Positions 29,640 through 46,783 of a stretch of 64,000 nt of DNA are shown here, piece by piece. The translations under genes and the position numbers were made by a program. The stretch lies in IMG/VR virus record IMGVR_UViG_3300014205_000183; one strand, written 5' to 3'. The stretch comes from a virus (taxonomy: Duplodnaviria > Caudoviricetes). The notes beneath the pieces are model-generated. The model did not search any database. It worked only from the letters and a program-made list of their open reading frames with translations, and had not been told where the DNA came from. Each line of letters opens with the position of its first letter. Position 1 is the first letter of the stretch.

Positions 29640-29838
29640 ATCATATATCGATGGAGTCGAACCACCTAGTCTGCCTACTTACATTTACCTACCGGATTTT
29701 CATGTCCGTTCCAGTGTAGGCCGTGCACCAGTTGTTTAGACCGCACACGTACAGGATTTGAACCCGCAATAAATGTGTGCTTCAACAGCATTTGCAGCTT
29801 ACGAGGCTACTGCGTTCACCATGACGCCCCACATATGA
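29640..29838 (-). ncRNA. ~200-nt tRNA-like RNA (anticodon CGU, very large variable region)
   Basis: UCAUAUG/UAUAUGA termini, D arm, GUAGC-CUCGUAA-GCUGC arm, two T-loop hairpins. Confidence 0.6.
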
Positions 29839-29867
29839 TTTTAAAAGAACATTTTAATTTCCTAAAT

Positions 29868-29896
29868 AACATAAACTATTAAAAATTAAAAGTCAA
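29868..29896 (-). promoter_or_regulatory. Promoter for the ncRNA island/Ro60 unit
   Basis: TTGACT-17-TATGTT with the shared upstream T tract; boxA-like site just downstream. Confidence 0.7.
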
Positions 29897-30035
29897 CATA
29901 AAAATAAAAAAAAATTATCACACTCGGTACGATTATTCTTTACATCTCATTTTTAACACTATATATTAGCAGCATCATCGACCAACGGAGTTTAACCATT
30001 TTGATATCTACTCCGTATATCAAGAAAGGACATGT

Positions 30036-30740
30036 ATGATGCATTCAAATTCTTTTGTCTTAGCTGTCAAGTCGGCGGACAACAAAATCCTTCGTGAAAT
30101 CGGAGGACAGGTTTTCCTCACATTCAATTCAGAGTATTCTCTCCTGCTGAAGAACCTTAACAATGTAAAAAGCTGTTGCACAGTTAGCATTGACGGAACG
30201 GATGTTCTAGGTGGTCACGAGTTGATCGTCGAAGCACATTCCAGTATTGACCTAGAGAGATTTGTGGTAGATGGCAACTTTGGAAGTGGTCGCCGCTTCA
30301 AATTTGTACCACTTACGGACTCTAAGGTACAAGACCCCTCTTCTGCTGAAAATGGTATCGTGGAAGTGCGGTTCTGGAAAGAGAAAGTTATTCAACCTAT
30401 CTTCATAGGGAGTAACTCTCTTCTTCGATCAAGCGGGGTGATCCATCCTAACTCCAGCAGTTGCTTCTATTCAGCTCCTATAGGTACTGCCTGCTGTGAT
30501 AGTATGGCTACTCCAGCGGCTGCGGGGGCTACTGTAGAAGGTGCATATAGCAATCAGCAGTTTGGCAGCGGATACTTCGGAGAAAAAGACGGGGCACCCA
30601 CCGTGCTGCGGCTTAAGTTGGTTGGTCAGGTAGATAAACCACTAACAGTAGAAGCTACTAAAAATAAACACTGCACTAACTGTGGCCGAAAAGCCAAGTT
30701 CAATGATTATTTCTGTGGTGGCTGCGGTAAAGCTCTATAA
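30036..30740 (+). CDS. Hypothetical protein with C-terminal Zn ribbon
   Basis: AAGGA RBS; CTNC..CGGC. Confidence 0.75.
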   Translation: MMHSNSFVLAVKSADNKILREIGGQVFLTFNSEYSLLLKNLNNVKSCCTVSIDGTDVLGGHELIVEAHSSIDLERFVVDGNFGSGRRFKFVPLTDSKVQDPSSAENGIVEVRFWKEKVIQPIFIGSNSLLRSSGVIHPNSSSCFYSAPIGTACCDSMATPAAAGATVEGAYSNQQFGSGYFGEKDGAPTVLRLKLVGQVDKPLTVEATKNKHCTNCGRKAKFNDYFCGGCGKAL

Positions 30741-30763
30741 GATCCAGTTACTCGGTCGATGAC

Positions 30764-30795
30764 AGCCCGGCTTCCATGGTGGAGGCCGGGTTTTT
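30764..30795. terminator. Terminator hairpin between the convergent CDS and tRNA array
   Basis: CCCGGCTTCCA/TGGAGGCCGGG, U tract on + strand. Confidence 0.75.
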
Positions 30796-30802
30796 AATTT
30801 AA

Positions 30803-30925
30803 TGCCGGTAACGTGCGTTTTCGGATGTTTTTTGTTTTACCATTAAACTACACCTTACGGCGTCGGGATTCGAACCCGAATCTTTCTTTAGACAGAAGAA
30901 GTATCCGATAACTATCAACACGGCA
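30803..30925 (-). ncRNA. yrlA: YrlA-type Y RNA 5 (last RNA of the tRNA array)
   Basis: Termini identical to Y RNA 4; T arm then D arm. Confidence 0.82.
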
Positions 30926-30929
30926 ATTT

Positions 30930-31018
30930 TGGCGGATGAAGTGAGACTCGAACTCACAACGCCGTCTCTGGCGCTACTGCTTTTCAAGAGCAGCTCCCGT
31001 TCCAGCAGGAACTCATCC
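30930..31018 (-). tRNA. tRNA-Ser(UGA)
   Basis: CUGCU-CUUGAAA-AGCAG; long variable arm; CCA. Confidence 0.85.
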
Positions 31019-31026
31019 ATATATTT

Positions 31027-31103
31027 TGGAGCACCCTCCCGGAATTGCACCGAGGTATTAATCGGGTTGCGACCGACCGCCTTACTGTCTTGGCTAAGAG
31101 TGC
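31027..31103 (-). tRNA. tRNA-Cys(GCA)
   Basis: Loop UCGCAAC; U73; CCA. Confidence 0.85.
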
Positions 31104-31113
31104 ATATAAATTT

Positions 31114-31194
31114 TGGTGCGCTAGGAGGGACTTGCACCCCCACGATTTCTCGGCAGATCCTAAGTCTGCTGCGTCTGCATTCCGCCACAAGCGC
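31114..31194 (-). tRNA. tRNA-Leu(UAG)
   Basis: GCAGA-CUUAGGA-UCUGC; CCA. Confidence 0.9.
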
Positions 31195-31200
31195 ATAATC

Positions 31201-31277
31201 TGGTATCCTCGGTTGGATTCTAACCAACGACATCCTCTTTAGGAAAGAAGAACTCTGAACAGCTGAGCTACGAGGAT
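31201..31277 (-). tRNA. tRNA-Arg(CCU)
   Basis: Loop UUCCUAA; CCA. Confidence 0.85.
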
Positions 31278-31278
31278 A

Positions 31279-31355
31279 TGGTGCTTCGAGTCGGACTTAA
31301 ACCGACGGCATCAGCCTTCGGAAAGCTGCGCTCTATTCATCTGAGCTATCGAAGC
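31279..31355 (-). tRNA. tRNA-Arg(CCG)
   Basis: Loop UUCCGAA; CCA. Confidence 0.88.
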
Positions 31356-31360
31356 CTGTT

Positions 31361-31437
31361 TGGCGTTCATGGAAGGACTTGAACCTTCAGCCTCCTGGTC
31401 CGTAGCCAGGTGCTCTATCCAATTGAGCTACACGAAC
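31361..31437 (-). tRNA. tRNA-Arg(ACG)
   Basis: Loop CUACGGA; CCA. Confidence 0.92.
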
Positions 31438-31443
31438 ATATTT

Positions 31444-31519
31444 TGGCAGGAGAGGCCGGAGTTGAACCGACGACATCCAGCTCCAGAGGCTGGCGTTCTA
31501 CCAACTGAACTACTCTCCA
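31444..31519 (-). tRNA. tRNA-Gln(CUG)
   Basis: Loop CUCUGGA; CCA. Confidence 0.9.
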
Positions 31520-31526
31520 ACGATTT

Positions 31527-31600
31527 TGGCTGAGGTGCATCGACTTGCACGATGATAACAGGCTCCAAAGGCCTGGGTCCTACTATTGAACGACACCCCA
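31527..31600 (-). tRNA. tRNA-Gln(UUG)
   Basis: Loop CUUUGGA; CCA. Confidence 0.9.
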
Positions 31601-31634
31601 AAATTTTTAAAAGAGCCGGGTGGTTGTCCCCGGC

Positions 31635-32195
31635 TTATGCTTCAAGTTCAACATCCCAATAAACAAAGTCTTTCCAACTCTCGTGCGGCAGGTGCTTAAG
31701 AGCCTGAATCTTCAGGGTTATTTCACGCTCAAGAGAGAGGTCGTACTTCGGCGCCTGGGGTGTGCACCACAAGTGCATTCCAGCTTGTGCCGGCGTTCGG
31801 TTAGCCTTCTTGCCGTTGCAAGCTAAGCAGCAGCATACAAGATTACGCCAATGACTTGTTCCACCCTGGTCACGAGGAACCACGTGGTCCCAGTGCATCT
31901 TCTGGATAGGTAAAAACGTCCGGCAATACTGACAATGCCCCCGGTCACGAATCCACAGATTCTTACGGGACAGCCGCATAACACGGCCACGCTTCTGGAC
32001 ATTGCCCGCAAAGTAAAGCAATCTGATAATAGCTGGGGCTTCCATAGCCTGCTTCCAGGAACGCAGATGCTTATCGGGGTAACTGGCAATGATTTCAGCG
32101 CGACCAGCTTCCACTTTCGTGATAGCATCTTCCCAACTAGCATACATATTCACAGGCGCATAGTTGCGGCTCAACACTAAACAAGTTGTACTCAT
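31635..32195 (-). CDS. HNH endonuclease (McrA-like)
   Basis: RDRGHCQYC, DHVVPRDQGG, WRNLV..C..CN..K; AGGAGG RBS. Confidence 0.92.
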   Translation of the reverse strand: MSTTCLVLSRNYAPVNMYASWEDAITKVEAGRAEIIASYPDKHLRSWKQAMEAPAIIRLLYFAGNVQKRGRVMRLSRKNLWIRDRGHCQYCRTFLPIQKMHWDHVVPRDQGGTSHWRNLVCCCLACNGKKANRTPAQAGMHLWCTPQAPKYDLSLEREITLKIQALKHLPHESWKDFVYWDVELEA

Positions 32196-32224
32196 TGAAT
32201 TACCTCCTTTCTGTGATTAAGTTT

Positions 32225-32299
32225 TGGAGCGGCAAGCGGGCATCGCACCCGCGACATTCACCTTGGCAAGGTGACATTCTACTACTGAATTATTGCCGC
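32225..32299 (-). tRNA. tRNA-Gly(GCC)
   Basis: Loop UUGCCAA; CCA. Confidence 0.9.
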
Positions 32300-32311
32300 A
32301 TATTATAAATT

Positions 32312-32385
32312 TGGTACCCCTACTTGGAATCGGACCAAGGTCCACGGATTAAGAGTCCGCTGCACTACCACTGTGCTATAGAGGC
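32312..32385 (-). tRNA. tRNA-Lys(CUU)
   Basis: Loop CUCUUAA; CCA. Confidence 0.88.
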
Positions 32386-32386
32386 A

Positions 32387-32463
32387 TGGTGCTTCCGGTG
32401 AGTATCGCACTCACGACCCCCTCATTAAAAGTGAGGTGCTCTAACTAGCTGAGCTACGGAGGC
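32387..32463 (-). tRNA. tRNA-Lys(UUU)
   Basis: Loop CUUUUAA; CCA. Confidence 0.9.
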
Positions 32464-32478
32464 ATAATTTTAAATTTG

Positions 32479-32551
32479 AGCCTTCTGCCGGAGTCGCGCC
32501 GGCGACCTGCTGCTTACGAAACAGCTGCTCTACTGACTGAGCTAAGAAGGC
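32479..32551 (-). tRNA. tRNA-Thr(CGU)
   Basis: Loop UUCGUAA; no encoded CCA. Confidence 0.85.
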
Positions 32552-32577
32552 ACGCCTGATGGCGCTTGGCTGTTATT

Positions 32578-32653
32578 TGGAGCCTGCGACCGGAGTTGCA
32601 CCGATGACTTCCACATTACAAGTATGGCGCTCTACTGACTGAGCTACGCAGGC
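32578..32653 (-). tRNA. tRNA-Thr(UGU)
   Basis: Loop CUUGUAA; CCA. Confidence 0.9.
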
Positions 32654-32794
32654 AAGTTTAAACCCACTACCGTCCTCCCCCGCCCCTCGTACGAATTTCA
32701 CGTAGCCGCTTGGGTCAACCCGGCAGCAGATGACTTAATGACTCTATAAATCCGAGAAATGACAACATAAAACTTTTAAATGACAATATAAAAA

Positions 32795-32865
32795 TGGAAC
32801 TGCGGGGAGTCGCACCCCGGTCTCGACTATGCCATAGTCGGATTCTACTGCTGAAATACAGCCCC
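32795..32865 (-). tRNA. tRNA-Ala(GGC)
   Basis: Loop AUGGCAU; G3-U70. Confidence 0.85.
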
Positions 32866-32875
32866 AGATTGATTT

Positions 32876-32951
32876 TGGTGGAATCGAAGGGCATCGAACC
32901 CTCAACCCCTAGCTTGCAAAGCTAGTGCTCTCCCAATTGAGCTACGACCCC
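32876..32951 (-). tRNA. tRNA-Ala(UGC)
   Basis: Loop UUUGCAA; G3-U70; CCA. Confidence 0.92.
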
Positions 32952-32956
32952 ATATT

Positions 32957-33030
32957 TGGTACCCCTACGCGGTTATGCTCCGCGGTCAGATGGCTGAAAA
33001 CCACCGGTTCTACTATTAAACTATAGGGGC
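32957..33030 (-). tRNA. tRNA-Glu(UUC)
   Basis: Loop UUUUCAG; atypical T loop; CCA. Confidence 0.85.
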
Positions 33031-33038
33031 ATGAATTT

Positions 33039-33113
33039 TGGTACTCATATGGGGAATTGCACCCCAGTCAGACGGCTGAGAACCGCCGATCCTAACTACT
33101 GGACGATATGAGT
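33039..33113 (-). tRNA. tRNA-Glu(CUC)
   Basis: Loop UUCUCAG; CCA. Confidence 0.88.
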
Positions 33114-33121
33114 ATGTATTT

Positions 33122-33197
33122 TGGTGCGAACTCCCGGAATCGCACCGGGGACGCCAGCCTTTTCAGGGCTGCGCTCTACTGTCTGAGCTAAGTCCGC
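33122..33197 (-). tRNA. tRNA-Phe(GAA)
   Basis: Loop CUGAAAA; CCA. Confidence 0.9.
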
Positions 33198-33207
33198 ATA
33201 ATAATTT

Positions 33208-33283
33208 TGGCACGGGTAGTAGGATTTGCACCCACATCTCCAGGCTTAGAAAACCTGCACACTATCTATTGTGCTATACCCGT
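33208..33283 (-). tRNA. tRNA-Arg(UCU)
   Basis: Loop UUUCUAA; CCA. Confidence 0.88.
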
Positions 33284-33288
33284 AAGAT

Positions 33289-33410
33289 TGGAGGATTCCG
33301 CCAGGCTATTCTGGACCGCCCGGCAATGCCCGCACGTCATACAGGCTTAGATACCGGTTACACACCGATGACGTCGGTGCAGTGGCGGAGCATTGCAACT
33401 CCCGGAACTC
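33289..33410 (-). ncRNA. Unassigned ~120-nt CCA-ending structured RNA
   Basis: UUCCG/CGGAA paired termini followed by UCCUCCA; internal ACGUCAU/AUGACGU stem. Confidence 0.55.
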
Positions 33411-33414
33411 TTTT

Positions 33415-33489
33415 TGGAGCGCCTGGCCGGATTCCCACCGGCGTAAGTCAGCTTGGAAGGCTGGTGGACAAGTACTATCCCACAGACGC
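33415..33489 (-). tRNA. tRNA-Gly(UCC)
   Basis: Loop CUUCCAA; T loop UGGGAAU; CCA. Confidence 0.85.
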
Positions 33490-33571
33490 ATAATGTTAAC
33501 AAAGGTGTGGTGGGCGCCCCGGATTCTCAGGTCCTGGCCGACCAGATTCCACTTCACCTTCAAATTTTAAA

Positions 33572-33647
33572 ATCTCCGGTAGCCCGACTCGAACGGACTC
33601 AGGCGCCCGCTAAGGCCCCCTGCTACCCTTACATCATTCCCGAAGAT
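33572..33647 (-). pseudogene. Degenerate tRNA-like element
   Basis: Paired termini and GUCCG-UUCGAGU-CGGGC T arm; poor D and anticodon arms. Confidence 0.5.
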
Positions 33648-33722
33648 ATTGTACAGGAGACCATCCGCGTTGTCACGTAGAAGCCAGTTTTACCGCGTTT
33701 GCAGCCCGAACCTGTTTACTTT

Positions 33723-33798
33723 TGGTAGCGCAGGTGAGAATCCAACTCACCGCCCCAGGCTTATGAGACCCGGATGCCCAGCAGGGCACCTCCGCGCA
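33723..33798 (-). tRNA. tRNA-Met(CAU), initiator-like, aberrant D arm
   Basis: Loop CUCAUAA; 1-72 mismatch; CCA. Confidence 0.75.
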
Positions 33799-33801
33799 AT
33801 T

Positions 33802-33877
33802 TGGTATCGCCAGCTCGATTCGCACGAGCGACATCAGCCTTATGAGAGCTGCGTTCTTCTACCTGAACTATGGCGAT
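33802..33877 (-). tRNA. tRNA-Met/Ile2(CAU)
   Basis: Loop CUCAUAA; CCA. Confidence 0.85.
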
Positions 33878-33885
33878 ATGAATTT

Positions 33886-33961
33886 TGGCTGTCCGGGCAA
33901 GGATCGAACTTGCGACCTTCTCATTAACAGTGAGTTGCTCTGCCTACTGAGCTACTGGACA
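33886..33961 (-). tRNA. tRNA-Asn(GUU)
   Basis: Loop CUGUUAA; CCA. Confidence 0.9.
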
Positions 33962-33992
33962 ATGAATTACTGTTATATTTATATGCGTGTTA

Positions 33993-34970
33993 CTAATTAT
34001 TTTTTAAACTTGTTCTGTACGCTTGATAATGGGATAAGGAACAGAAAAAATGAGATTGATTACATTTTTCTTTTTCTTTTATTCTCTTAACTTTTATAGC
34101 AAATAAGCTATGACAATATGCACAGGATATTTGTGTATACGCGGCTCTTTTTATTCGACCCTGCTTTCCTTGTTCTACAAATGCCACACGGTGTGTGAGA
34201 TTATTCTTAGTCCAATATCCGCGCCCTATTTTTGTATGTATCCCGTACAATTTACACCATTTTCTTATGGAATTTCCAGTTACTCCGTAAACCTGCGCTA
34301 TTTTTGTGATGGGCGAGGATTTAACTAATAATTGTAATTGCTCCATACTAGGTCTGTTCGTAATTTTTTTTACTGCATGCTGTCTGGCAGCACACGAGAG
34401 ACATCGGGTGCTTACTTTTGAAATTATCGAACCACAATCAATGCAATTTTTGATCTTTCGTCTATTTTTACCGTTGGTGGTGGGTAGCTGCATATTACAA
34501 TTAGGACATACTATTCTTAAATTTTCTATACGATAATCATCTCGATGTCCATTTATATGGTCAAGTATTAACGTTAATGGTTTTTCAAACCATTCTGGTC
34601 TTTGTCCACATAATGCACATATATTTTTTAAAATACCCTCTTTCAATAATCGATGTTTAAGTCCTCGATTATCTTTACACGGAGAGTGGTTTATAAGTAA
34701 TTCACTAAGAGGTCTAGCAGGAACTCTGAACTTTAAATCCGCTCCTTGTTTAGCTTTAAAATGTTCAATATTTATTTTATCATAATCTAATCGTTCTTTT
34801 AACGCACGAAGTGCCGCGCCGTTCTTAACCCTACCAAAGTAAGACAGTATAGCTGAAAAGGACGAACATTTTTTAACAACCTGCTCAAAAGTATCCCGGT
34901 CTAAAGACCAGAACACTCCATTACGCTTTAGTTGTCTTTCTTTACTATAATGTTCTTGGTTCATATCCAT
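33993..34970 (-). CDS. HNH homing endonuclease with Zn-finger/HTH DNA-binding tail
   Basis: CALC..LILDHINGHRDDYRIENLRIVCPNC; KIAQVYGVTGNSIRKW. Confidence 0.88.
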   Translation of the reverse strand: MDMNQEHYSKERQLKRNGVFWSLDRDTFEQVVKKCSSFSAILSYFGRVKNGAALRALKERLDYDKINIEHFKAKQGADLKFRVPARPLSELLINHSPCKDNRGLKHRLLKEGILKNICALCGQRPEWFEKPLTLILDHINGHRDDYRIENLRIVCPNCNMQLPTTNGKNRRKIKNCIDCGSIISKVSTRCLSCAARQHAVKKITNRPSMEQLQLLVKSSPITKIAQVYGVTGNSIRKWCKLYGIHTKIGRGYWTKNNLTHRVAFVEQGKQGRIKRAAYTQISCAYCHSLFAIKVKRIKEKEKCNQSHFFCSLSHYQAYRTSLKNN

Positions 34971-35010
34971 AATAAACTAAATAAAACAAAATAACAAAGC
35001 AAGAAAAATA

Positions 35011-35087
35011 CAGGGCTGACGGGACTTGCACCCGCAAAAACCTCCCGCGTGACAGGCGGGCGCTCTAACTATTTGAGCTACAGCCCT
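35011..35087 (-). tRNA. tRNA-Asp(GUC)
   Basis: Loop CUGUCAC; no encoded CCA. Confidence 0.88.
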
Positions 35088-35099
35088 ATGAATTTTAAA

Positions 35100-35175
35100 T
35101 GGAGCCTTCAAGGAGAATCGCACTCCTGACCTCGTCCTTACCAAGGACGTGCTCTACTAACTAAGCTATGAAGGC
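35100..35175 (-). tRNA. tRNA-Thr(GGU)
   Basis: Loop UUGGUAA; CCA. Confidence 0.9.
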
Positions 35176-35176
35176 A

Positions 35177-35262
35177 TGGCGGAGAAGGTGAGATTTGCAC
35201 TCACAGACCATCGCTGGTTGCGGCGTTTCCAACACCGTGCTCGACTACTGAGCGACTTCTCC
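35177..35262 (-). tRNA. tRNA-Ser(GGA)
   Basis: Loop UUGGAAA; long variable arm; CCA. Confidence 0.87.
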
Positions 35263-35266
35263 ATTT

Positions 35267-35353
35267 TGGCGGAAGTAGAAAGACTTGAACTTTCATACCC
35301 TTTCGGGTTTGCCAGTTTTCGAGGCTGGTGACCTACCATTGGTCGATACTTCC
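35267..35353 (-). tRNA. tRNA-Ser(CGA)
   Basis: Loop CUCGAAA; long variable arm; CCA. Confidence 0.87.
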
Positions 35354-35404
35354 ATCTTCACGTCTTCACGTTTACGTGAAACCATGATATTTCGTGAATA
35401 ATAT

Positions 35405-35494
35405 TGGCGGAAGAGACAGGACTTGCACCTGCAAGACGGTTTTAACCGCCGGATGGTTAGCAACCACCTGCCTTACTGATTAGACTACTCTTCC
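35405..35494 (-). tRNA. tRNA-Ser(GCU)
   Basis: Loop UUGCUAA; long variable arm; CCA. Confidence 0.88.
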
Positions 35495-35499
35495 ATATT

Positions 35500-35576
35500 T
35501 GGTACTCCGTAATCGAGTTGCACGATTGACCTTCGCCTTATCAGAGCGACGTTCTAACTAACTGAACTAACGGAGC
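35500..35576 (-). tRNA. tRNA-Ile(GAU)
   Basis: Loop CUGAUAA; CCA. Confidence 0.9.
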
Positions 35577-35580
35577 AAGT

Positions 35581-35657
35581 TGGTACGGGAGATACGATTT
35601 GCACGTACATATGTCACCTTATAAGAGTGATGCCTTAACTAGTCGAGCCACTCCCGT
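35581..35657 (-). tRNA. tRNA-Ile(UAU)
   Basis: UCACU-CUUAUAA-GGUGA; CCA. Confidence 0.87.
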
Positions 35658-35665
35658 GAGAATAT

Positions 35666-35740
35666 TGGCAGGCCGACTCGGACTCGAACCGAGGTCAATG
35701 GTTTTGGAGACCACCACACTAACCGCTGTGCTATCAGCCT
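35666..35740 (-). tRNA. tRNA-Trp(CCA)
   Basis: Loop CUCCAAA; CCA. Confidence 0.9.
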
Positions 35741-35747
35741 ATGAAAT

Positions 35748-35824
35748 TGGTCAGCATGACAGGATTTGCACCTGCGGTCTCTCGGTCCCGAACCGAGCGC
35801 ACTACTGGGCTGTGCTACATGCTG
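35748..35824 (-). tRNA. tRNA-Pro(CGG)
   Basis: Loop UUCGGGA; CCA. Confidence 0.9.
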
Positions 35825-35907
35825 ATGATTTTAGCGGACACACCGGCGCAGACAACCGCAGAGAGGGTACTACCCATTGGAGCTGACTGTCCGACATGTC
35901 CTGGATT

Positions 35908-35984
35908 TGGTCGGGTAAGCCGGAATCGCACCGACGACATTCTGGTCCCAAACCAGACGCTCTACTTGGCTGAGCTACTACCCG
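35908..35984 (-). tRNA. tRNA-Pro(UGG)
   Basis: Loop UUUGGGA; CCA. Confidence 0.9.
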
Positions 35985-36000
35985 TAATACTTTAGAGTTG

Positions 36001-36675
36001 TTAATTTGTTTTTGTCTTAATCAAATTATGTAAAGTTTTTCTTCCTTTACCATGATTAAGACCACCCCACGTGGGTGTCATAGCATGACAATTAGGACAT
36101 AAAACTTCATGATTACCTGGTGTTTGATTGAAGGCATTGCCATCTTTGTGGTTTACTTGCAGTACACTTTTATTTGATGAGGGATTTGGCTTATTAAATC
36201 CACATTGTTGGCATTTGTAACCTGCTTCTTTTATTAGATAGTTTCGTAAGATACGAGGTATGGGCATCGGCCCGTTTTTTAAACCGGCTTTCCATTCAGT
36301 TATATATTTTTGTTGCCTATATTTTACTTGACAACTATGCGAACAATATTTTTGATTACCTGGTATCTCTTTTTGGCATTCTACACATTTTGAAATACTT
36401 GATTTTCTTTTAGGAAACATCCTGTTATTATACACCGCAGCACACGATCTGCTGCAAAAGATATTTTTACTTTTCTTTCTACGTGCCCTGTATTGTGTTA
36501 GTGTAAGTTCTTTTCCGCAGTTTATGCAATTAAGTTTTTCCCTAACCTTAAACCACTTATCCTGATTTAATTGAATGAGGCATTTTTTAGAACATACGGA
36601 CTTTGGTCGATATTTTAATCGAAAGTTACTTCTAACTATTGGTGCTTGGCAAACACAACATTTAACAACAGGCAT
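36001..36675 (-). CDS. HNH homing endonuclease with N-terminal Zn-finger repeats
   Basis: Three CxxC..CSxxC repeats; CQQC..LQVNHKDGNAFN...LCPNCH; start uncertain. Confidence 0.85.
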   Translation of the reverse strand: MPVVKCCVCQAPIVRSNFRLKYRPKSVCSKKCLIQLNQDKWFKVREKLNCINCGKELTLTQYRARRKKSKNIFCSRSCAAVYNNRMFPKRKSSISKCVECQKEIPGNQKYCSHSCQVKYRQQKYITEWKAGLKNGPMPIPRILRNYLIKEAGYKCQQCGFNKPNPSSNKSVLQVNHKDGNAFNQTPGNHEVLCPNCHAMTPTWGGLNHGKGRKTLHNLIKTKTN

Positions 36676-36765
36676 ACCTATAATATATCTTAAAGGAGTC
36701 GAAAAAGCTAATACAATACACCATATTAAGATATTACTATGTTCGAATCCCAATATACTTTAAAA

Positions 36766-36841
36766 TGGGGTGTCGTACGGGTTCTGCCCCCGTGCCGCAT
36801 CCTCCACAGGGATGTGTGCTTCTAGTTACACTAACGACACC
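36766..36841 (-). tRNA. tRNA-His(GUG)
   Basis: Loop CUGUGGA; G-1:C73; CCA. Confidence 0.87.
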
Positions 36842-36863
36842 ATGATTTCATATGAGTATTTCC

Positions 36864-36941
36864 TGAAGGGGACCCACCGCTGTGGATGCCGGGTATCACC
36901 CCGGTTCAGGCAATGCGCCGCCTGATTTTAAGTCCCCTTCA
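36864..36941 (-). ncRNA. Unassigned four-way-junction RNA
   Basis: UGAAGGGGAC/GUCCCCUUCA closing stem with three internal hairpins. Confidence 0.55.
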
Positions 36942-36958
36942 AGAAACAAATTTTAATT

Positions 36959-37038
36959 TACCCCCACTGAGACTTGCACTCAGAAGCCGAAGCATAGAGG
37001 CTTAAACTCTACGTGTTTTCTAATTTCACCATGGGGGC
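36959..37038 (-). tRNA. tRNA-Leu(UAA)
   Basis: Loop UUUAAGC; no encoded CCA. Confidence 0.85.
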
Positions 37039-37050
37039 AAGGGCTAGTTT

Positions 37051-37126
37051 TGGTGCCGTCGGAGGTGGTTGCAACCTCACTGGGTGGCTTTTGAGACCAC
37101 TATCTCTGCTCTTGGATTACGACGGC
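37051..37126 (-). tRNA. tRNA-Leu(CAA), short variable loop
   Basis: Loop CUCAAAA; CCA. Confidence 0.82.
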
Positions 37127-37131
37127 AAATT

Positions 37132-37210
37132 TGGTGCCGCCAGGACTCTCCCTAGGGGCAGTGGTCACACCACTGACATTCCACGAATGAATGCGATGAG
37201 CAGGTGTCGC
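37132..37210 (-). pseudogene. Degenerate tRNA-like element ending in CCA
   Basis: CAGUGG/CCACUG and CUAGG/CCUGG hairpins then CGGCACCA; 5' half unrecognisable. Confidence 0.4.
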
Positions 37211-37223
37211 TGATACATATGCA

Positions 37224-37311
37224 TGGTACTTCGGGTGGGACTTGCACCCACAGGTGAGCTTGCGCTCGCGTGCACCTCAAGCACGTAGCTATGCTATTCG
37301 CCTACCGAAGT
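37224..37311 (-). tRNA. tRNA-Leu(GAG)
   Basis: Loop UUGAGGU; long variable arm; CCA. Confidence 0.87.
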
Positions 37312-37318
37312 ATGATTT

Positions 37319-37402
37319 TGGTGCGCCGTGATGGAATCGAACCACCTGTCCGTTAAGAACGCCGGGTTACAACCGGTTACCCCGCCATGGAGAATACGAC
37401 GC
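37319..37402 (-). tRNA. tRNA-Tyr(GUA)
   Basis: Loop UUGUAAC; variable arm; CCA. Confidence 0.85.
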
Positions 37403-37425
37403 ATGAATTTTAAAAAGAAAAATAA

Positions 37426-37497
37426 TAGGGCCAGAAAGACTTGCACTTTCAACCTTCTGGATGTAAGCCAGCTGCGCTGCTATTGCGCCATGGCCCC
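37426..37497 (-). tRNA. tRNA-Val(UAC)
   Basis: Loop CUUACAU; no encoded CCA. Confidence 0.87.
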
Positions 37498-37521
37498 ATA
37501 TTTGAATAATCGTACCTGAAA

Positions 37522-37532
37522 TGTCAAAGATC
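37522..37532 (-). promoter_or_regulatory. boxA-like antitermination site before the first tRNA
   Basis: GATCTTTGACA about 25 nt upstream of tRNA-Val. Confidence 0.6.
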
Positions 37533-37746
37533 TTATCACCCGGACGTTCCCCGTGTGCCAGTAGCTCCAGCGCGGCTTACGCGGCTTACGGAGTTCCCAG
37601 TATATCAATTAGCTATCGACAAAAAAAGAACGCGCAGGCTAGTGTGTTGGCACCAACATGCGCGTTCTAATTTATACCTGATGGTTTGGATGGCCGTCCG
37701 TGCCACCAGGCTGTCGAAAATTTTCTAACTCTATCCTACTAAACCC

Positions 37747-37810
37747 AAAACAAAAAACCCTCGGTTTTGGCCGAGGGTTCTTCTTTTATCTGTGCAAGAA
37801 AAAACCCTCG
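37747..37810 (-). promoter_or_regulatory. Transcription attenuator (antiterminator/terminator)
   Basis: CGAGGGUUUUUUCUU pairs with AAGAAGAACCCUCG; alternatively AACCCUCGG pairs with CCGAGGGUU followed by a U tract. Confidence 0.85.
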
Positions 37811-37948
37811 TTAGGTTCGGTGTCCTTCCATATCATTATTGCCTAGTGTGGCAACAGTCATATAGACTGACAAACAAATGGGCTGCGCCCATACGCCTGT
37901 GCGTCTTTGACTTTTGGATATAAATGGGGTTTTTAATAACGAAGACAT
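37811..37948 (-). CDS. 45-aa leader peptide MSSLLKTPFISKSQRRTGVWAQPICLSVYMTVATLGNNDMEGHRT
   Basis: AGAGG RBS; lies between promoter and attenuator; stop codon abuts the antiterminator strand. Confidence 0.8.
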   Translation of the reverse strand: MSSLLKTPFISKSQRRTGVWAQPICLSVYMTVATLGNNDMEGHRT

Positions 37949-37995
37949 TTTTCCTCTTTTAACTTTTTAATGTTTCTAAATCTACAAGCTCCCTT

Positions 37996-38024
37996 AATAT
38001 AGCACATGAAATATGGAATGTCAA
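37996..38024 (-). promoter_or_regulatory. Promoter of the tRNA array
   Basis: TTGACA-17-TATATT with extended -10 TG and A-tract UP element. Confidence 0.85.
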
Positions 38025-38085
38025 TAGTTTTTTTTATTAAATCGTAAAATAAATTTATTACTTATTTTATTTTGTTATTTTTATG

Positions 38086-38147: not shown

Positions 38148-38591
38148 ATGGCAGATATAATGATACCGTATAGAAATCAAATCATAAGACACGATCGCAG
38201 TTTGGATAAATTTTATATCCTTAAGTCAAACATCATATCGCGCACAGGAGGATTTGACAGCCTAACAGAGGCACTTGATTACATTAAGGAAATAAAACGC
38301 AAGCCACTTAACATCCCAGTTGCCATTGTTGAGTATCATGGGAGCAAGGTAGTTAGAGGCCTCGTACAAGAGCATAGAAATGGATGGGTAACTGTGCGGG
38401 TGAATCCCGAGAGAGAAATCACTACAATACTGGAAAACGTATATCTGGATAATGAAACTAACCGTGAACAACTAAATTTACTGGATTGGGCATATACGAT
38501 TATTAACGCTAACGCTCAAGAAATACCCAGCATGCGTAAGAAATTGGTACCTTTCACGCCAACAACTAAAAAAAGTAAAAAAGCATTATAA
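38148..38591 (+). CDS. Hypothetical protein (paralog of next gene)
   Basis: AGGAGG RBS; GGF...DYI and VYLD motifs. Confidence 0.7.
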   Translation: MADIMIPYRNQIIRHDRSLDKFYILKSNIISRTGGFDSLTEALDYIKEIKRKPLNIPVAIVEYHGSKVVRGLVQEHRNGWVTVRVNPEREITTILENVYLDNETNREQLNLLDWAYTIINANAQEIPSMRKKLVPFTPTTKKSKKAL

Positions 38592-38602: not shown

Positions 38603-39046
38603 ATGTCAGAAATAGAAATCCCTCACAAAAAACACACGATCAAATATAACCGGCATATTGAGTCATTTCAGGTGTACTCTGATAAAACTGGTAAGAGGAT
38701 AGGTGGCTTCAAGAAGCTACACACAGCTATAGACTATATTGACTCCCTCAGCCACAAGACAACGAACACCCCGGTTGTAGTCATATTTAACGATCGTTAT
38801 AAAGCTATGAGAGGCGTCGCAAAAAAATACAGTAGAGGGGTTGTGACTGTCGCTTTAGAAGGCGCACAAAAAGTCAATGTTAATGCGTCTTGTGTATATT
38901 TAGACGATGACAGTAATCACGATGAATTACAGTTCCTAGACAAGGTGTATGATGTCATCCACGTTAATCTGGCTACTGTGGATAAAATCAAAGCATATCT
39001 GACTCCTTTTAAGGCCACACACCGTGCCGTGGCCAGAGGTAAGTAA
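38603..39046 (+). CDS. Hypothetical protein (paralog of previous gene)
   Basis: AGGAGG RBS; shared motifs. Confidence 0.7.
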   Translation: MSEIEIPHKKHTIKYNRHIESFQVYSDKTGKRIGGFKKLHTAIDYIDSLSHKTTNTPVVVIFNDRYKAMRGVAKKYSRGVVTVALEGAQKVNVNASCVYLDDDSNHDELQFLDKVYDVIHVNLATVDKIKAYLTPFKATHRAVARGK

Positions 39047-42249: not shown

Positions 42250-43122
42250 ATGAAAGATAAATTTACAGCTAAATGGATCATGGAAGTTGGTATCCCTATT
42301 GTGGAATCCTATGGGGGCAATATCACACTACGCGCCCTACACTACCAGCTTGTAGCTTTAGGTATGACTAATGATGTATCCCACTATAAGAAAGTTGTTT
42401 CTGCGATGATAACCGCCCGCTGGGAAGGTCGCGTGGCTTTTGATGCCTTCTTAGACCATGAACGTGGCTCCATAGGTACCACTGAGTACGAGCAAACCAA
42501 TGTGAAAGATTCCGCGGATACCGCCAAAAAGCAGATCCAAGCATGGGCAACCAGCTACAGAAAGAATCGCTGGGAAAATCAGCCGATATATCCTGAAGTT
42601 TTTATCGAAAAAAAGGCACTACAAGGCGTGTTCTCGGCCCCTTGTAAGTCCTGGGACGTGGCACTCAACCCTTGCAAAGGTTACCCATCCTTAACCTTCT
42701 TGTATGATTGTAAAAAACGTTTTGATACCGCTATAGATTTGAAAAAAACTCCTATTATTCTATACTTTGGTGATTATGATTGTTCGGGAGAAGATATTCC
42801 TCGAAGCATTGCCAATACCCTCGACAGAATGGGCACACCTGTAGAGGTGCGACGTATTGCACTAATGGAAGAACAGGTTGTCGCCTGGAAACTCCCGCCG
42901 GCCCCCACAAAAACACAAGATACTAGAAGCCATAACTGGTCAGGGTTAGGGCAAGTAGAGTTAGATGCTGTAGAACCCAGGAAAATAGTAAAACTATGTG
43001 AAGAAGCTCTTGAAGGTATTTTTGATGCAGATCTGTATGCGGATCTATTGGAGTTAGAGTTGACTGAAAAGAATGCATTTAAAAAGATCTTAAAAAAAGA
43101 TTTTAAGTCATTACTTGATTAA
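42250..43122 (+). CDS. Topo VI-A/JetD-like TOPRIM protein with N-terminal winged helix
   Basis: TLRALHYQL, EVFIEKKAL, KGYPS, ILYFGDYDCSGEDI, ELDA. Confidence 0.78.
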   Translation: MKDKFTAKWIMEVGIPIVESYGGNITLRALHYQLVALGMTNDVSHYKKVVSAMITARWEGRVAFDAFLDHERGSIGTTEYEQTNVKDSADTAKKQIQAWATSYRKNRWENQPIYPEVFIEKKALQGVFSAPCKSWDVALNPCKGYPSLTFLYDCKKRFDTAIDLKKTPIILYFGDYDCSGEDIPRSIANTLDRMGTPVEVRRIALMEEQVVAWKLPPAPTKTQDTRSHNWSGLGQVELDAVEPRKIVKLCEEALEGIFDADLYADLLELELTEKNAFKKILKKDFKSLLD

Positions 43123-45004: not shown

Positions 45005-46367
45005 TAAGGGTCACGGCAAACCAGAGTATATACTATGTGCTGCAAACCATTACGACGATGGACTCAAATATGACCACCAACCAAGAAACATACAGCAAGG
45101 GTTCGTTATTACGGGAAGGCGTCATCACAACTGCATATTGACATTCTCAGTTATAGCTAAATTAAAAGACCCTGAAGGAATGAAAAAACTACCTTGTATA
45201 CAAGGGTTCTTAACTAGCAAAGATAGATTCTTAAATAGACAAGATAGCTATGATCTGGCCATCACATGTGGCCAACTTAAAGGTGAAGCAATTAAAAAAG
45301 TACGCACAGTGTTAATGAGTGAAGACTTATGGTAAGGAGATTTCATGGGTAAACTAAAAAAAGAAACAGCAACCTGCCGAAAGTGTAAAAATGTACTACA
45401 CTTCGCGCAATTTCAAGGTATGCGGATTATTGAAGATGGCTTGTTAGCTGCGCGATGCATCATCTGTGGCGCACATTATACGATGCCCCCTGCACCCCCG
45501 AACGAAAAAGAGGAGGGTATAAAATCTAAGTCATGGGCACAAGGAGATAAACGTGTAAACGCTTATATGCCTCCCATAACCAGGGCACTAAACGCTGCGG
45601 GCTTAACTGAATTTGATGCTCGCCGAAAGGGAGTATATAATGCATGCTACCAAGCGGTATTCAAAGCAATAAGAGACTATACAGGAGATATAGGATGAGA
45701 CATAACTTTGCAGATAAAAAATACACCGTTGTATTTGACGAAGAGACAGCTTTATTTGAAGCACTTCGACATGGGGAACCTTGGCGAGACTTATGCGGTG
45801 ACGGGCTAATCTTAGCCATGCTACAAGAAGTGGATCATCTCAAAGAACAATTAGCGGCGGCCAATGCCTGGATACCTTGTGCAGACAGACTACCAGAAGC
45901 AGATGGTGAATATATTGCACACTATAAGTGGTCGGACAAAAGTCCCTTCGCAGCGTTCAACGACAGCGCCCAGGCTAATAACTGTGTACTGGCAATATTT
46001 AGAAATGGACATTGGCAGACTGATACCCGGCGCATCACACACTGGCGAGCAAAACCAACACCTCCACCAAGGAGCACAAATGAAACTGGTAATTGAGATA
46101 GAAACTAAAAATCAAAAAATTATTCTACAGGAACTACAAGATATCTATATACAAGTTAAGCAGGAACTAGCATCTCCTGCCTGCAAAGGTTGTAAGGCTT
46201 GTAAGGACCCTAAAAAAGGTTGTATCGTAGGAGGAGGTAACTCTGAACCCCGCGTGGCGCTGGAATCTAGGTGGCAGCTTTCTCGAAAATATATAGAACA
46301 CAAGAAAATATGTACGTCGAAAAATAAAAAACCAGGGGTGGTAGTATACACTATATATACTAGTTGA
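44967..46367 (+). CDS. Four hypothetical ORFs (44967-45335; 45345-45698; 45695-46096 DUF551-like C-terminus; 46080-46367)
   Basis: Coupled ORFs; WIPCADRLPE...ITHW. Confidence 0.6.
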
Positions 46368-46421
46368 CATTTGCTGCATATTGATTATATTATAATCTGA
46401 CTGCTATTTGAAATAATTGAC

Positions 46422-46772
46422 GTGGGCGCATTGGTTTCGACTGGTAAGGGAGATCAGGGCTTGCATGCAGAGGATGATAGTTGGCCTCTTTAATCACTCT
46501 ATTAAGTAATAACTAACAACGATAAAGTTGTTTCTTTGGCTATACGCCAGAGCGCAGCGATTGAAGCCTGCTTCATGGCTTCTCTTGCCAGTGTAAAAGC
46601 AAATGAAGAATTCCGCGCAGCTGCCTAAGCTCGTGTAGGTCTTATCAAATAGTGCTGCTGAGGGTCAGGTTTTGTCCGAAACACCACCTCAGAGTAAGCT
46701 AAGAATCGGAATAAGCATGTAGAAGTTTTGGTTAAAGTTAACAGGACGCGAGTTCGATTCTCGCCGCCTACA
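46422..46772 (+). ncRNA. ssrA: tmRNA
   Basis: GUGGGCG...UUCGAC 5' end; GGACGCGAGUUCGAUUCUCGCCGCCUACA 3' end with G3-U70; pk1; AUAACU resume context; tag ORF 46515-46628 ending RAAA; TTGACA upstream. Confidence 0.92.
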
Positions 46773-46783
46773 TTTTTCTCATT

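Follow-up and report, generated by a model that had tools for sequence, protein, structure and literature searches.

A candidate leader-peptide attenuator at the head of a phage tRNA operon

The tRNA operon of a phage could be headed by a ribosome-mediated (leader-peptide) transcription attenuator. The window, by which we mean the whole stretch of 64,000 nucleotides that was analysed, makes up the second half of a phage genome of 132,324 bp. On its minus strand, a strong promoter is followed by a 45-codon open reading frame (ORF), three short strands that can pair in two mutually exclusive ways, a second terminator-like hairpin and a long array of tRNA genes. Fold predictions and a ribosome footprint model suggest that a ribosome translating the ORF could influence which of the two pairings forms first. 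We regard attenuation as plausible and as the best single reading of this arrangement, although we would give it less than an even chance of being correct.

The start of the leader contains the following features:

38025-38055, minus strand: A+T-rich, UP-element-like stretch of 31 nt (90% A+T), upstream of the -35 hexamer
37996-38024, minus strand: sigma70-type promoter TTGACA-17-TATATT with a TG extended -10 (score 11/12)
37953-37957, minus strand: Shine-Dalgarno (SD) sequence AGAGG, 4 nt ahead of the ATG at 37948
37811-37948, minus strand: leader ORF of 45 sense codons plus TAA (TAA at 37813-37811)
37868-37892, minus strand: GC-rich hairpin of 6 bp within the ORF (-8.2 kcal/mol), then a U-rich tail

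The original prediction called for a strong promoter, an AGAGG ribosome-binding site and a 45-codon ORF, and all three are found. The promoter is the best sigma70 site in 10 kb and the sole site in the 132-kb genome that combines a score of 11/12 with the TG extension, and the predicted transcription start lies near 37989 (minus strand). The A+T-rich stretch upstream might serve as an UP element, by analogy with promoters of the rrn and tRNA type. The ORF lies on the minus strand at the coordinates given above, and the first tRNA gene, for tRNA-Val, is on the same strand 313 nt downstream of it.

Several properties of the genome bear on how such signals would be read. SD-led initiation is the norm, with an SD motif in front of 49% of the long ORFs, compared with a background of 9%. 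The phage also encodes a tmRNA (46364-46775, plus strand; tag ANEEFRAAA) with its own 11/12 sigma70-type promoter, TTGACA-16-TATATT, and so host-type promoters appear to drive the stable RNAs of this phage. A topoisomerase-like protein (42250-43122, plus strand) has its best matches, at 56-57%, in phages of Bacteroidota. These matches hint at a host from that phylum, in which SD sequences are not used, but we rejected such a host given the strong enrichment of SD motifs. The likeness of the topoisomerase may instead be due to horizontal transfer.

The leader ORF is probably translated, judging from its sequence, because its codon usage is gene-like and because it is the sole SD-led ORF in the leader. 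Ranked among gene windows, its synonymous codon usage (RSCU) is at the 28th percentile; ranked among off-frame open windows, it is at the 95th. The hairpin and U-rich tail inside the ORF could possibly act as an RNA polymerase pause site that synchronises the ribosome with the polymerase. Protein searches with the 45-aa peptide found no homologue. We also considered whether the transcript might be a type I toxin mRNA of the hok/tisB kind and rejected this, since the peptide has no clear transmembrane segment; its best 19-residue Kyte-Doolittle mean is 1.18, and the customary threshold is about 1.6.

The alternative pairings involve three strands downstream of the stop codon and the last codons of the ORF:

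37814-37830, minus strand: region 1, the last ORF codons, with weak pairing to A (-8.2 kcal/mol)
37796-37810, minus strand: strand A, whose first base immediately follows the stop codon; it forms the 5' arm of the anti-terminator and contains a 12-nt copy of C
37771-37785, minus strand: strand B, common to the anti-terminator A:B and the terminator B:C
37744-37764, minus strand: strand C (37752-37764) plus U tract; 3' arm and tail of the intrinsic terminator T1

Folding agreed with the two alternative hairpins that had been proposed. A:B pairing takes up all of B and has a predicted energy of -17.6 kcal/mol, whereas B:C forms a 13-bp stem with a 6-nt loop (-19.5 kcal/mol) that is followed by UUUUUUGUUUU. 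The two are mutually exclusive and nearly equal in energy. A and C have in common a 12-mer, CGAGGGTTTTTT, of which there is no other copy in the 132-kb genome. We looked at whether this energy relation is unusual by comparing anti-terminator and terminator energies across the terminator-like sites of the genome, and the comparison was too noisy for use. Two further pairings of A can be drawn. The hairpin between region 1 and A is weak and terminator-like, with arms that resemble B and C. The ribosome-binding (SD/AUG) region can also pair with A (17 bp, -16.0 kcal/mol), and we rejected this pairing as a designed counterpart of region 1 because it did not stand out from shuffled controls (P = 0.055).

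In trp- and his-type attenuation, the position of the ribosome selects between hairpins of this kind, and the leaders repeat one codon type. In trp, the terminator (about -20) is more stable than the anti-terminator (about -12), and regulation is kinetic. To see what a ribosome could do here, we placed a 28-nt footprint at successive leader codons. Once B is out, the modelled probability of A:B pairing is 0.81 for a stall at any codon up to 42. When the A site is at codon 44, codon 45 or the stop codon, the value is lower, at 0.42, 0.20 and 0.09, respectively. Thus A:B is blocked in the model only when the ribosome is on codons 44-46, and in untranslated RNA A:B forms first. The geometry fits ribosome-mediated attenuation, and the model supports the view that A would be freed by a stall at nearly any position in the ORF. 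Once C is present, the equilibrium probability of the terminator is 0.94 in every modelled ribosome state, and therefore any switching would have to be purely kinetic. The claim that a ribosome at the stop codon masks A and a ribosome stalled earlier frees it is upheld by the geometry and the footprint model.

If the leader is an attenuator, host sigma70 RNA polymerase would initiate at the strong promoter at 38024, and a ribosome would load at AGAGG and trail the polymerase through the 45-codon ORF, whose translation we infer. With fast decoding, the ribosome would be at or near the UAA as B emerges; its footprint would hide A, B:C would form and transcription would stop at T1. If the lead ribosome lagged within the first ~42 codons, A would be free and could pair with newly made B, the terminator would be delayed and the polymerase would continue in the direction of the tRNA genes. 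Slow decoding of almost any codon could trigger such read-through, because the ORF contains all 20 amino acids and 37 different codons. The tRNAs produced might then restore decoding and re-close the switch, which would amount to feedback. This scheme presumes that the two hairpins compete kinetically and that the polymerase also reads through the second terminator, T2, which would have to be leaky or otherwise handled.

The composition of the ORF is also unusual. The codon count bore out the description in the original prediction: 20 amino acids and 37 distinct codons among 45, with five Ser codons that are all different and three different codons each for Arg, Val, Leu and Thr. A comparison with 45-codon windows of the phage's long ORFs, which had been suggested as a check, found this diversity to be rare. 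The probability of all 20 amino acids in such a window is 0.0057, that of at least 37 codons is 0.0012, and the two properties occur jointly in none of 5837 gene windows. Random-like sequence has a higher codon diversity than genes do, and in random open frames of the same base composition the joint property occurs at about 0.001. Among the 136 ATG ORFs of 40-50 codons in the genome, the leader ORF alone has both properties. The diversity statistic was picked post hoc, after the ORF had been seen, so these P values overstate the significance; the diversity is still notable after a discount of at least an order of magnitude.

This diversity could mean that the ORF is a test sequence for the translation system as a whole. 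By covering every amino acid and the majority of the phage's own anticodons, the ORF might gauge overall decoding capacity, and the near-complete tRNA set would be transcribed only when tRNAs are depleted, cleaved (by anticodon-nuclease defences or toxins) or uncharged. We consider this pan-codon form of attenuation distinctly unlikely, and its link to anticodon nucleases is pure conjecture. It is established that tRNAs encoded by phages can rescue infection in the face of tRNA-cleaving host defences (PMC11555353, PMC11464382). If the idea were true, the leader would provide a self-limiting, demand-driven counter-defence; it would broaden trp-type attenuation, which senses single amino acids and controls biosynthetic genes, into a control of tRNA supply that senses the translation system as a whole, and it would offer synthetic biology a compact natural sensor of translation capacity. 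If the locus is merely a small gene with tandem terminators, the element is ordinary. The ORF lacks a regulatory codon cluster of the kind found in the trp, his and phe leaders, and no codon occurs more than three times. Since each codon is present just once or twice, sensitivity to a mild shortage should be low, and a single hungry codon should cause little delay unless depletion is severe. We also asked how the leader codons relate to the phage's anticodons. Of the 35 phage anticodons, 28 can read leader codons (P = 0.014), no more than the general diversity predicts, and we therefore rejected a special match between the leader and the anticodon set.

Between the switch and the tRNA genes there is a second barrier to transcription:

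37617-37717, minus strand: unclassified structured RNA (z = -6.05) made up of a closing stem, hairpin I (9 bp) and the hairpin of T2
37621-37668, minus strand: T2, a second terminator-like barrier with a 17-bp hairpin (37668-37627; -26.3 kcal/mol), then U7
37425-37498, minus strand: tRNA-Val(UAC), the first gene of the array
29743-37498, minus strand: tRNA array of about 39 tRNAs, extending down to about 29743

T2 lies about 100 nt beyond T1 and ahead of the first tRNA. A fold search found no alternative partner for its 5' arm before its 3' arm is made. With a terminator that has no competitor between the switch and the first tRNA, the A/B/C switch cannot gate the array alone, as had been proposed; it accounts for the first terminator only. 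The original prediction also had read-through continue into a Y RNA. We rejected a Y RNA identity for the structured RNA that follows the switch, because it lacks the UGAUAG, ACUUC and CGUUACC-type motifs that are common to the five Y RNAs of the phage. No Rfam family matched it, and its candidate roles include an sRNA, a second attenuator or a processing site.

The spacer between T2 and tRNA-Val (37500-37612, minus strand) contains the tandem 9-mer GTAAGCCGC twice and folds to -31 kcal/mol. It also has a perfect TTGACA (37527-37522) without a usable -10, and we rejected this hexamer as part of an internal promoter because any -10 would put the start inside tRNA-Val. No good sigma70 promoter was found between T1 and tRNA-Val or ahead of the first four tRNAs, and a search by k-mer recurrence for a phage-specific promoter ahead of tRNA-Val gave chance-level repeats only. 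No further leader cassette was found within the array. With no other promoter and no inner cassette, the promoter at 38024 likely drives the array, and both terminators would have to be passed.

The array itself covers 19 amino acids. The figure of 39 tRNAs that had been put forward holds, approximately, at relaxed ARAGORN settings but not at default settings, which miss tRNA-Glu(UUC) at 32957-33030, tRNA-Leu(CAA) at 37051-37126 and a second CAU tRNA at 33727-33795. ARAGORN found no tRNA-His in the array, even though the leader has a His codon. The array also includes an odd tRNA-like unit (33573-33645) and is broken up by three ORFs of the HNH-endonuclease type (36001-36753, 33993-34970 and about 31635-32195).

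The leader resembles classical attenuators in several respects. Like trpL, hisL, pheL, thrL and ilvL of E. coli and Salmonella, it has a short, promoter-proximal, SD-led ORF followed by a terminator whose 5' arm has an alternative partner upstream. A ribosome at the stop codon would cover the upstream strand, and the energy balance is similar to that of trp. The differences are equally clear. The ORF contains all 20 amino acids and 37 codons instead of a run for one amino acid, tRNAs are found downstream instead of biosynthetic enzymes, and a second terminator follows. In addition, and unlike in trp, there is no clear 1:2 hairpin, and without translation the anti-terminator is expected from the model to form before the terminator. 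All of the curated Rfam leader models failed on this sequence, with sub-threshold best matches to Phe_leader (25.7 bits, compared with the 55 needed) and His_leader (17.9, compared with 49).

Ribosome-mediated attenuators that sense the general speed of translation are established. In bmrB of B. subtilis, faster translation as a result of codon optimisation leads to more termination and less read-through (PMC4191407). For toiL of E. coli, it has been proposed that a stall anywhere in the ORF relieves repression, although toiL acts via occlusion of the ribosome-binding site and Rho rather than through an intrinsic terminator (PMC12121999). The uORF of actinobacterial whiB7 also responds to amino-acid starvation (PMC12121999). 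In each of these systems, as perhaps in the phage leader, the rate of translation of a short ORF sets the fate of the transcript and no specific amino acid is involved; the modelled effect of stalls at codons 2-42, all of which leave A free, corresponds to the property described for toiL. However, bmrB, toiL and whiB7 belong to bacteria and not to phages, and the genes under their control serve resistance, stress or toxin functions. Maximised codon diversity or control over tRNA genes has been reported for none of them. A keyword search of the literature found no description of attenuation of phage tRNA genes or of the timing or dosing of phage tRNA expression.

A similar layout is found in an unrelated group, the phages akin to the Caulobacter phage phiCbK. 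In phiCbK, an anti-terminator and a terminator come after the 45-codon ORF phiCbK_235 and immediately precede a block of tRNA genes (Pro, Pro, Lys, three Leu and two Ser). Across five Shapiroviruses, a 9-nt indel leaves the frame of this ORF intact, and the RNA that follows it shows almost no variation. In Magneto, one compensatory pair change occurs in a hairpin that lies ahead of the ORF. The phiCbK-type cassettes have no sequence homology to the present leader, but they share with it a short ORF led by an SD, a near-copy of a terminator's 3' arm lying upstream of that arm, and an intrinsic terminator ahead of tRNA genes. This supports the view that the layout of leader ORF and terminator is a recurring, conserved feature of phage tRNA operons. 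The two cases differ in that here the near-copy adjoins the stop codon, a second terminator intervenes, and one leader heads a near-complete tRNA set and contains all 20 amino acids. The phiCbK-type layout also offers a reason why a leader with all 20 amino acids would head an array that is nearly complete. A literature keyword search found no published description of leader-ORF/terminator cassettes before phage tRNA blocks.

Explanations without translational control have to be weighed against attenuation. The leader could be a self-contained early unit in which a very strong promoter expresses a 45-aa gene and perhaps a structured RNA of ~100 nt, and tandem terminators (the weak 1:A, T1 and T2) insulate what lies beyond. 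Transcription of the array would then depend on a low level of constitutive read-through or on a phage-specific promoter that escaped recognition. Tandem terminators are typical behind very strong promoters, and here two strong ones are found 100 nt apart. Because A and the last ORF codons, which together form a weak terminator-like hairpin with arms like B and C, resemble a degenerate copy of B:C, the layout could be a remnant of a duplication. Tandem copies of one hairpin give rise automatically to pairing of the A:B type, so that strand A may be left over from a partly duplicated terminator and A:B would be a by-product without a regulatory role. The codon usage of the ORF looks coding, as would be expected of a small gene, and small ORFs beside tRNA genes are common in other phages, for example in Vibrio phage Achelous. 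If this were all, however, the combination of 20 amino acids and 37 codons, absent from all 5837 gene windows, would be pure chance, and the product would be a peptide with neither a homologue nor a clear transmembrane segment. The 1:A hairpin is also weak (-8.2), and no sigma70 promoter lies before the first four tRNAs; a start from the TTGACA at 37527 would fall inside tRNA-Val. On this evidence we consider the self-contained unit somewhat unlikely.

A different way past the terminators would be for the polymerase to become termination-resistant, through a phage or host factor or a cis-acting RNA as in lambda Q and HK022 put, or for the terminators simply to throttle the promoter by a fixed fraction, in either case making translation of the ORF irrelevant. 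A strong promoter with close terminators before a long operon is the classical layout for antitermination, and in lambda Q and HK022 put antitermination the leader need not be translated. The phage leader has this layout, with a strong constitutive promoter and a short terminated leader before a long operon, much as in lambda pR'-tR'/Q and HK022 put. Antitermination would also provide the common solution that two successive terminators need, given that T2 has no alternative structure of its own, and a structured RNA (z = -6) lies between the two. Yet Rfam and boxA searches of the leader recognised no Q-binding, nut, boxA or put-like element, and Rfam yielded no known antiterminator RNA family. 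Even with 3 mismatches allowed, the leader had no match to boxA of rrn or of B. subtilis, and for the 8-mer lambda boxA it gave 2-mismatch matches only; we rejected boxA-dependent antitermination on these grounds. Termination resistance also leaves unexplained both the unique A/C repeat at the stop codon and the codon diversity, and we think it unlikely. It is very unlikely, in our estimation, that the frame is accidental and that the transcript of ~240 nt ending at T1 is a non-coding early RNA, either an sRNA or a decoy. Gene callers did skip the ORF on two identical public contigs, random-like sequence exceeds genes in codon diversity, and the ribosome-binding region pairs with A in the terminated RNA. 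But that pairing is not significant, the RSCU is at the 95th percentile of off-frame windows, and the joint diversity has a P of about 0.001 even in random open frames. A 45-codon frame with a well-placed SD that ends exactly at the hairpin is also unlikely to arise by chance. We favor attenuation by a translating ribosome over each of these explanations, though at less than even odds.

Relatives that might show whether the leader is conserved are scarce. A blastn search of phages with 1.2 kb of leader DNA found none, the exact A-B pattern had no match in viral contigs, and no relatives of the neighbouring gene, the peptide or the DNA were found in the phage, IMG/VR and JGI collections or in sets of 5.8 and 1.8 billion proteins. 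Two public contigs carry the region and are identical over 6.4 kb. The phage is an orphan. It is a myovirus by gene content (major head protein, portal and tail sheath), and a Ro60 homologue, an asparagine synthase and a DNA ligase are encoded in the window in addition to the tmRNA. By its major capsid protein, its closest isolate is Bacillus phage G (36%), and the closest metagenomic match (60%) is on an 85-kb fragment in which we found no tRNA and no homologue of a 545-aa protein encoded near the leader. In the Ro60 relatives, tRNA arrays are organised differently.

The neighbours of the leader gave one distant lead. Divergent from the leader promoter are two adjoining ORFs of 147 aa (38148-38591 and 38603-39046, plus strand), which by eye resemble paralogues; a search of viral contigs and 5.8 billion proteins with the first of them found only itself. 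The neighbouring 545-aa protein has a sole distant homologue (28%), on an 18.7-kb ENA contig from sample ERZ1426815, and a profile made from the two had no match in viral or metagenome contigs. The ERZ1426815 contig also has a syntenic Zn-ribbon gene, and its first 3.8 kb, flanked by IS605 OrfB genes, are gene-free and might be a tRNA array.
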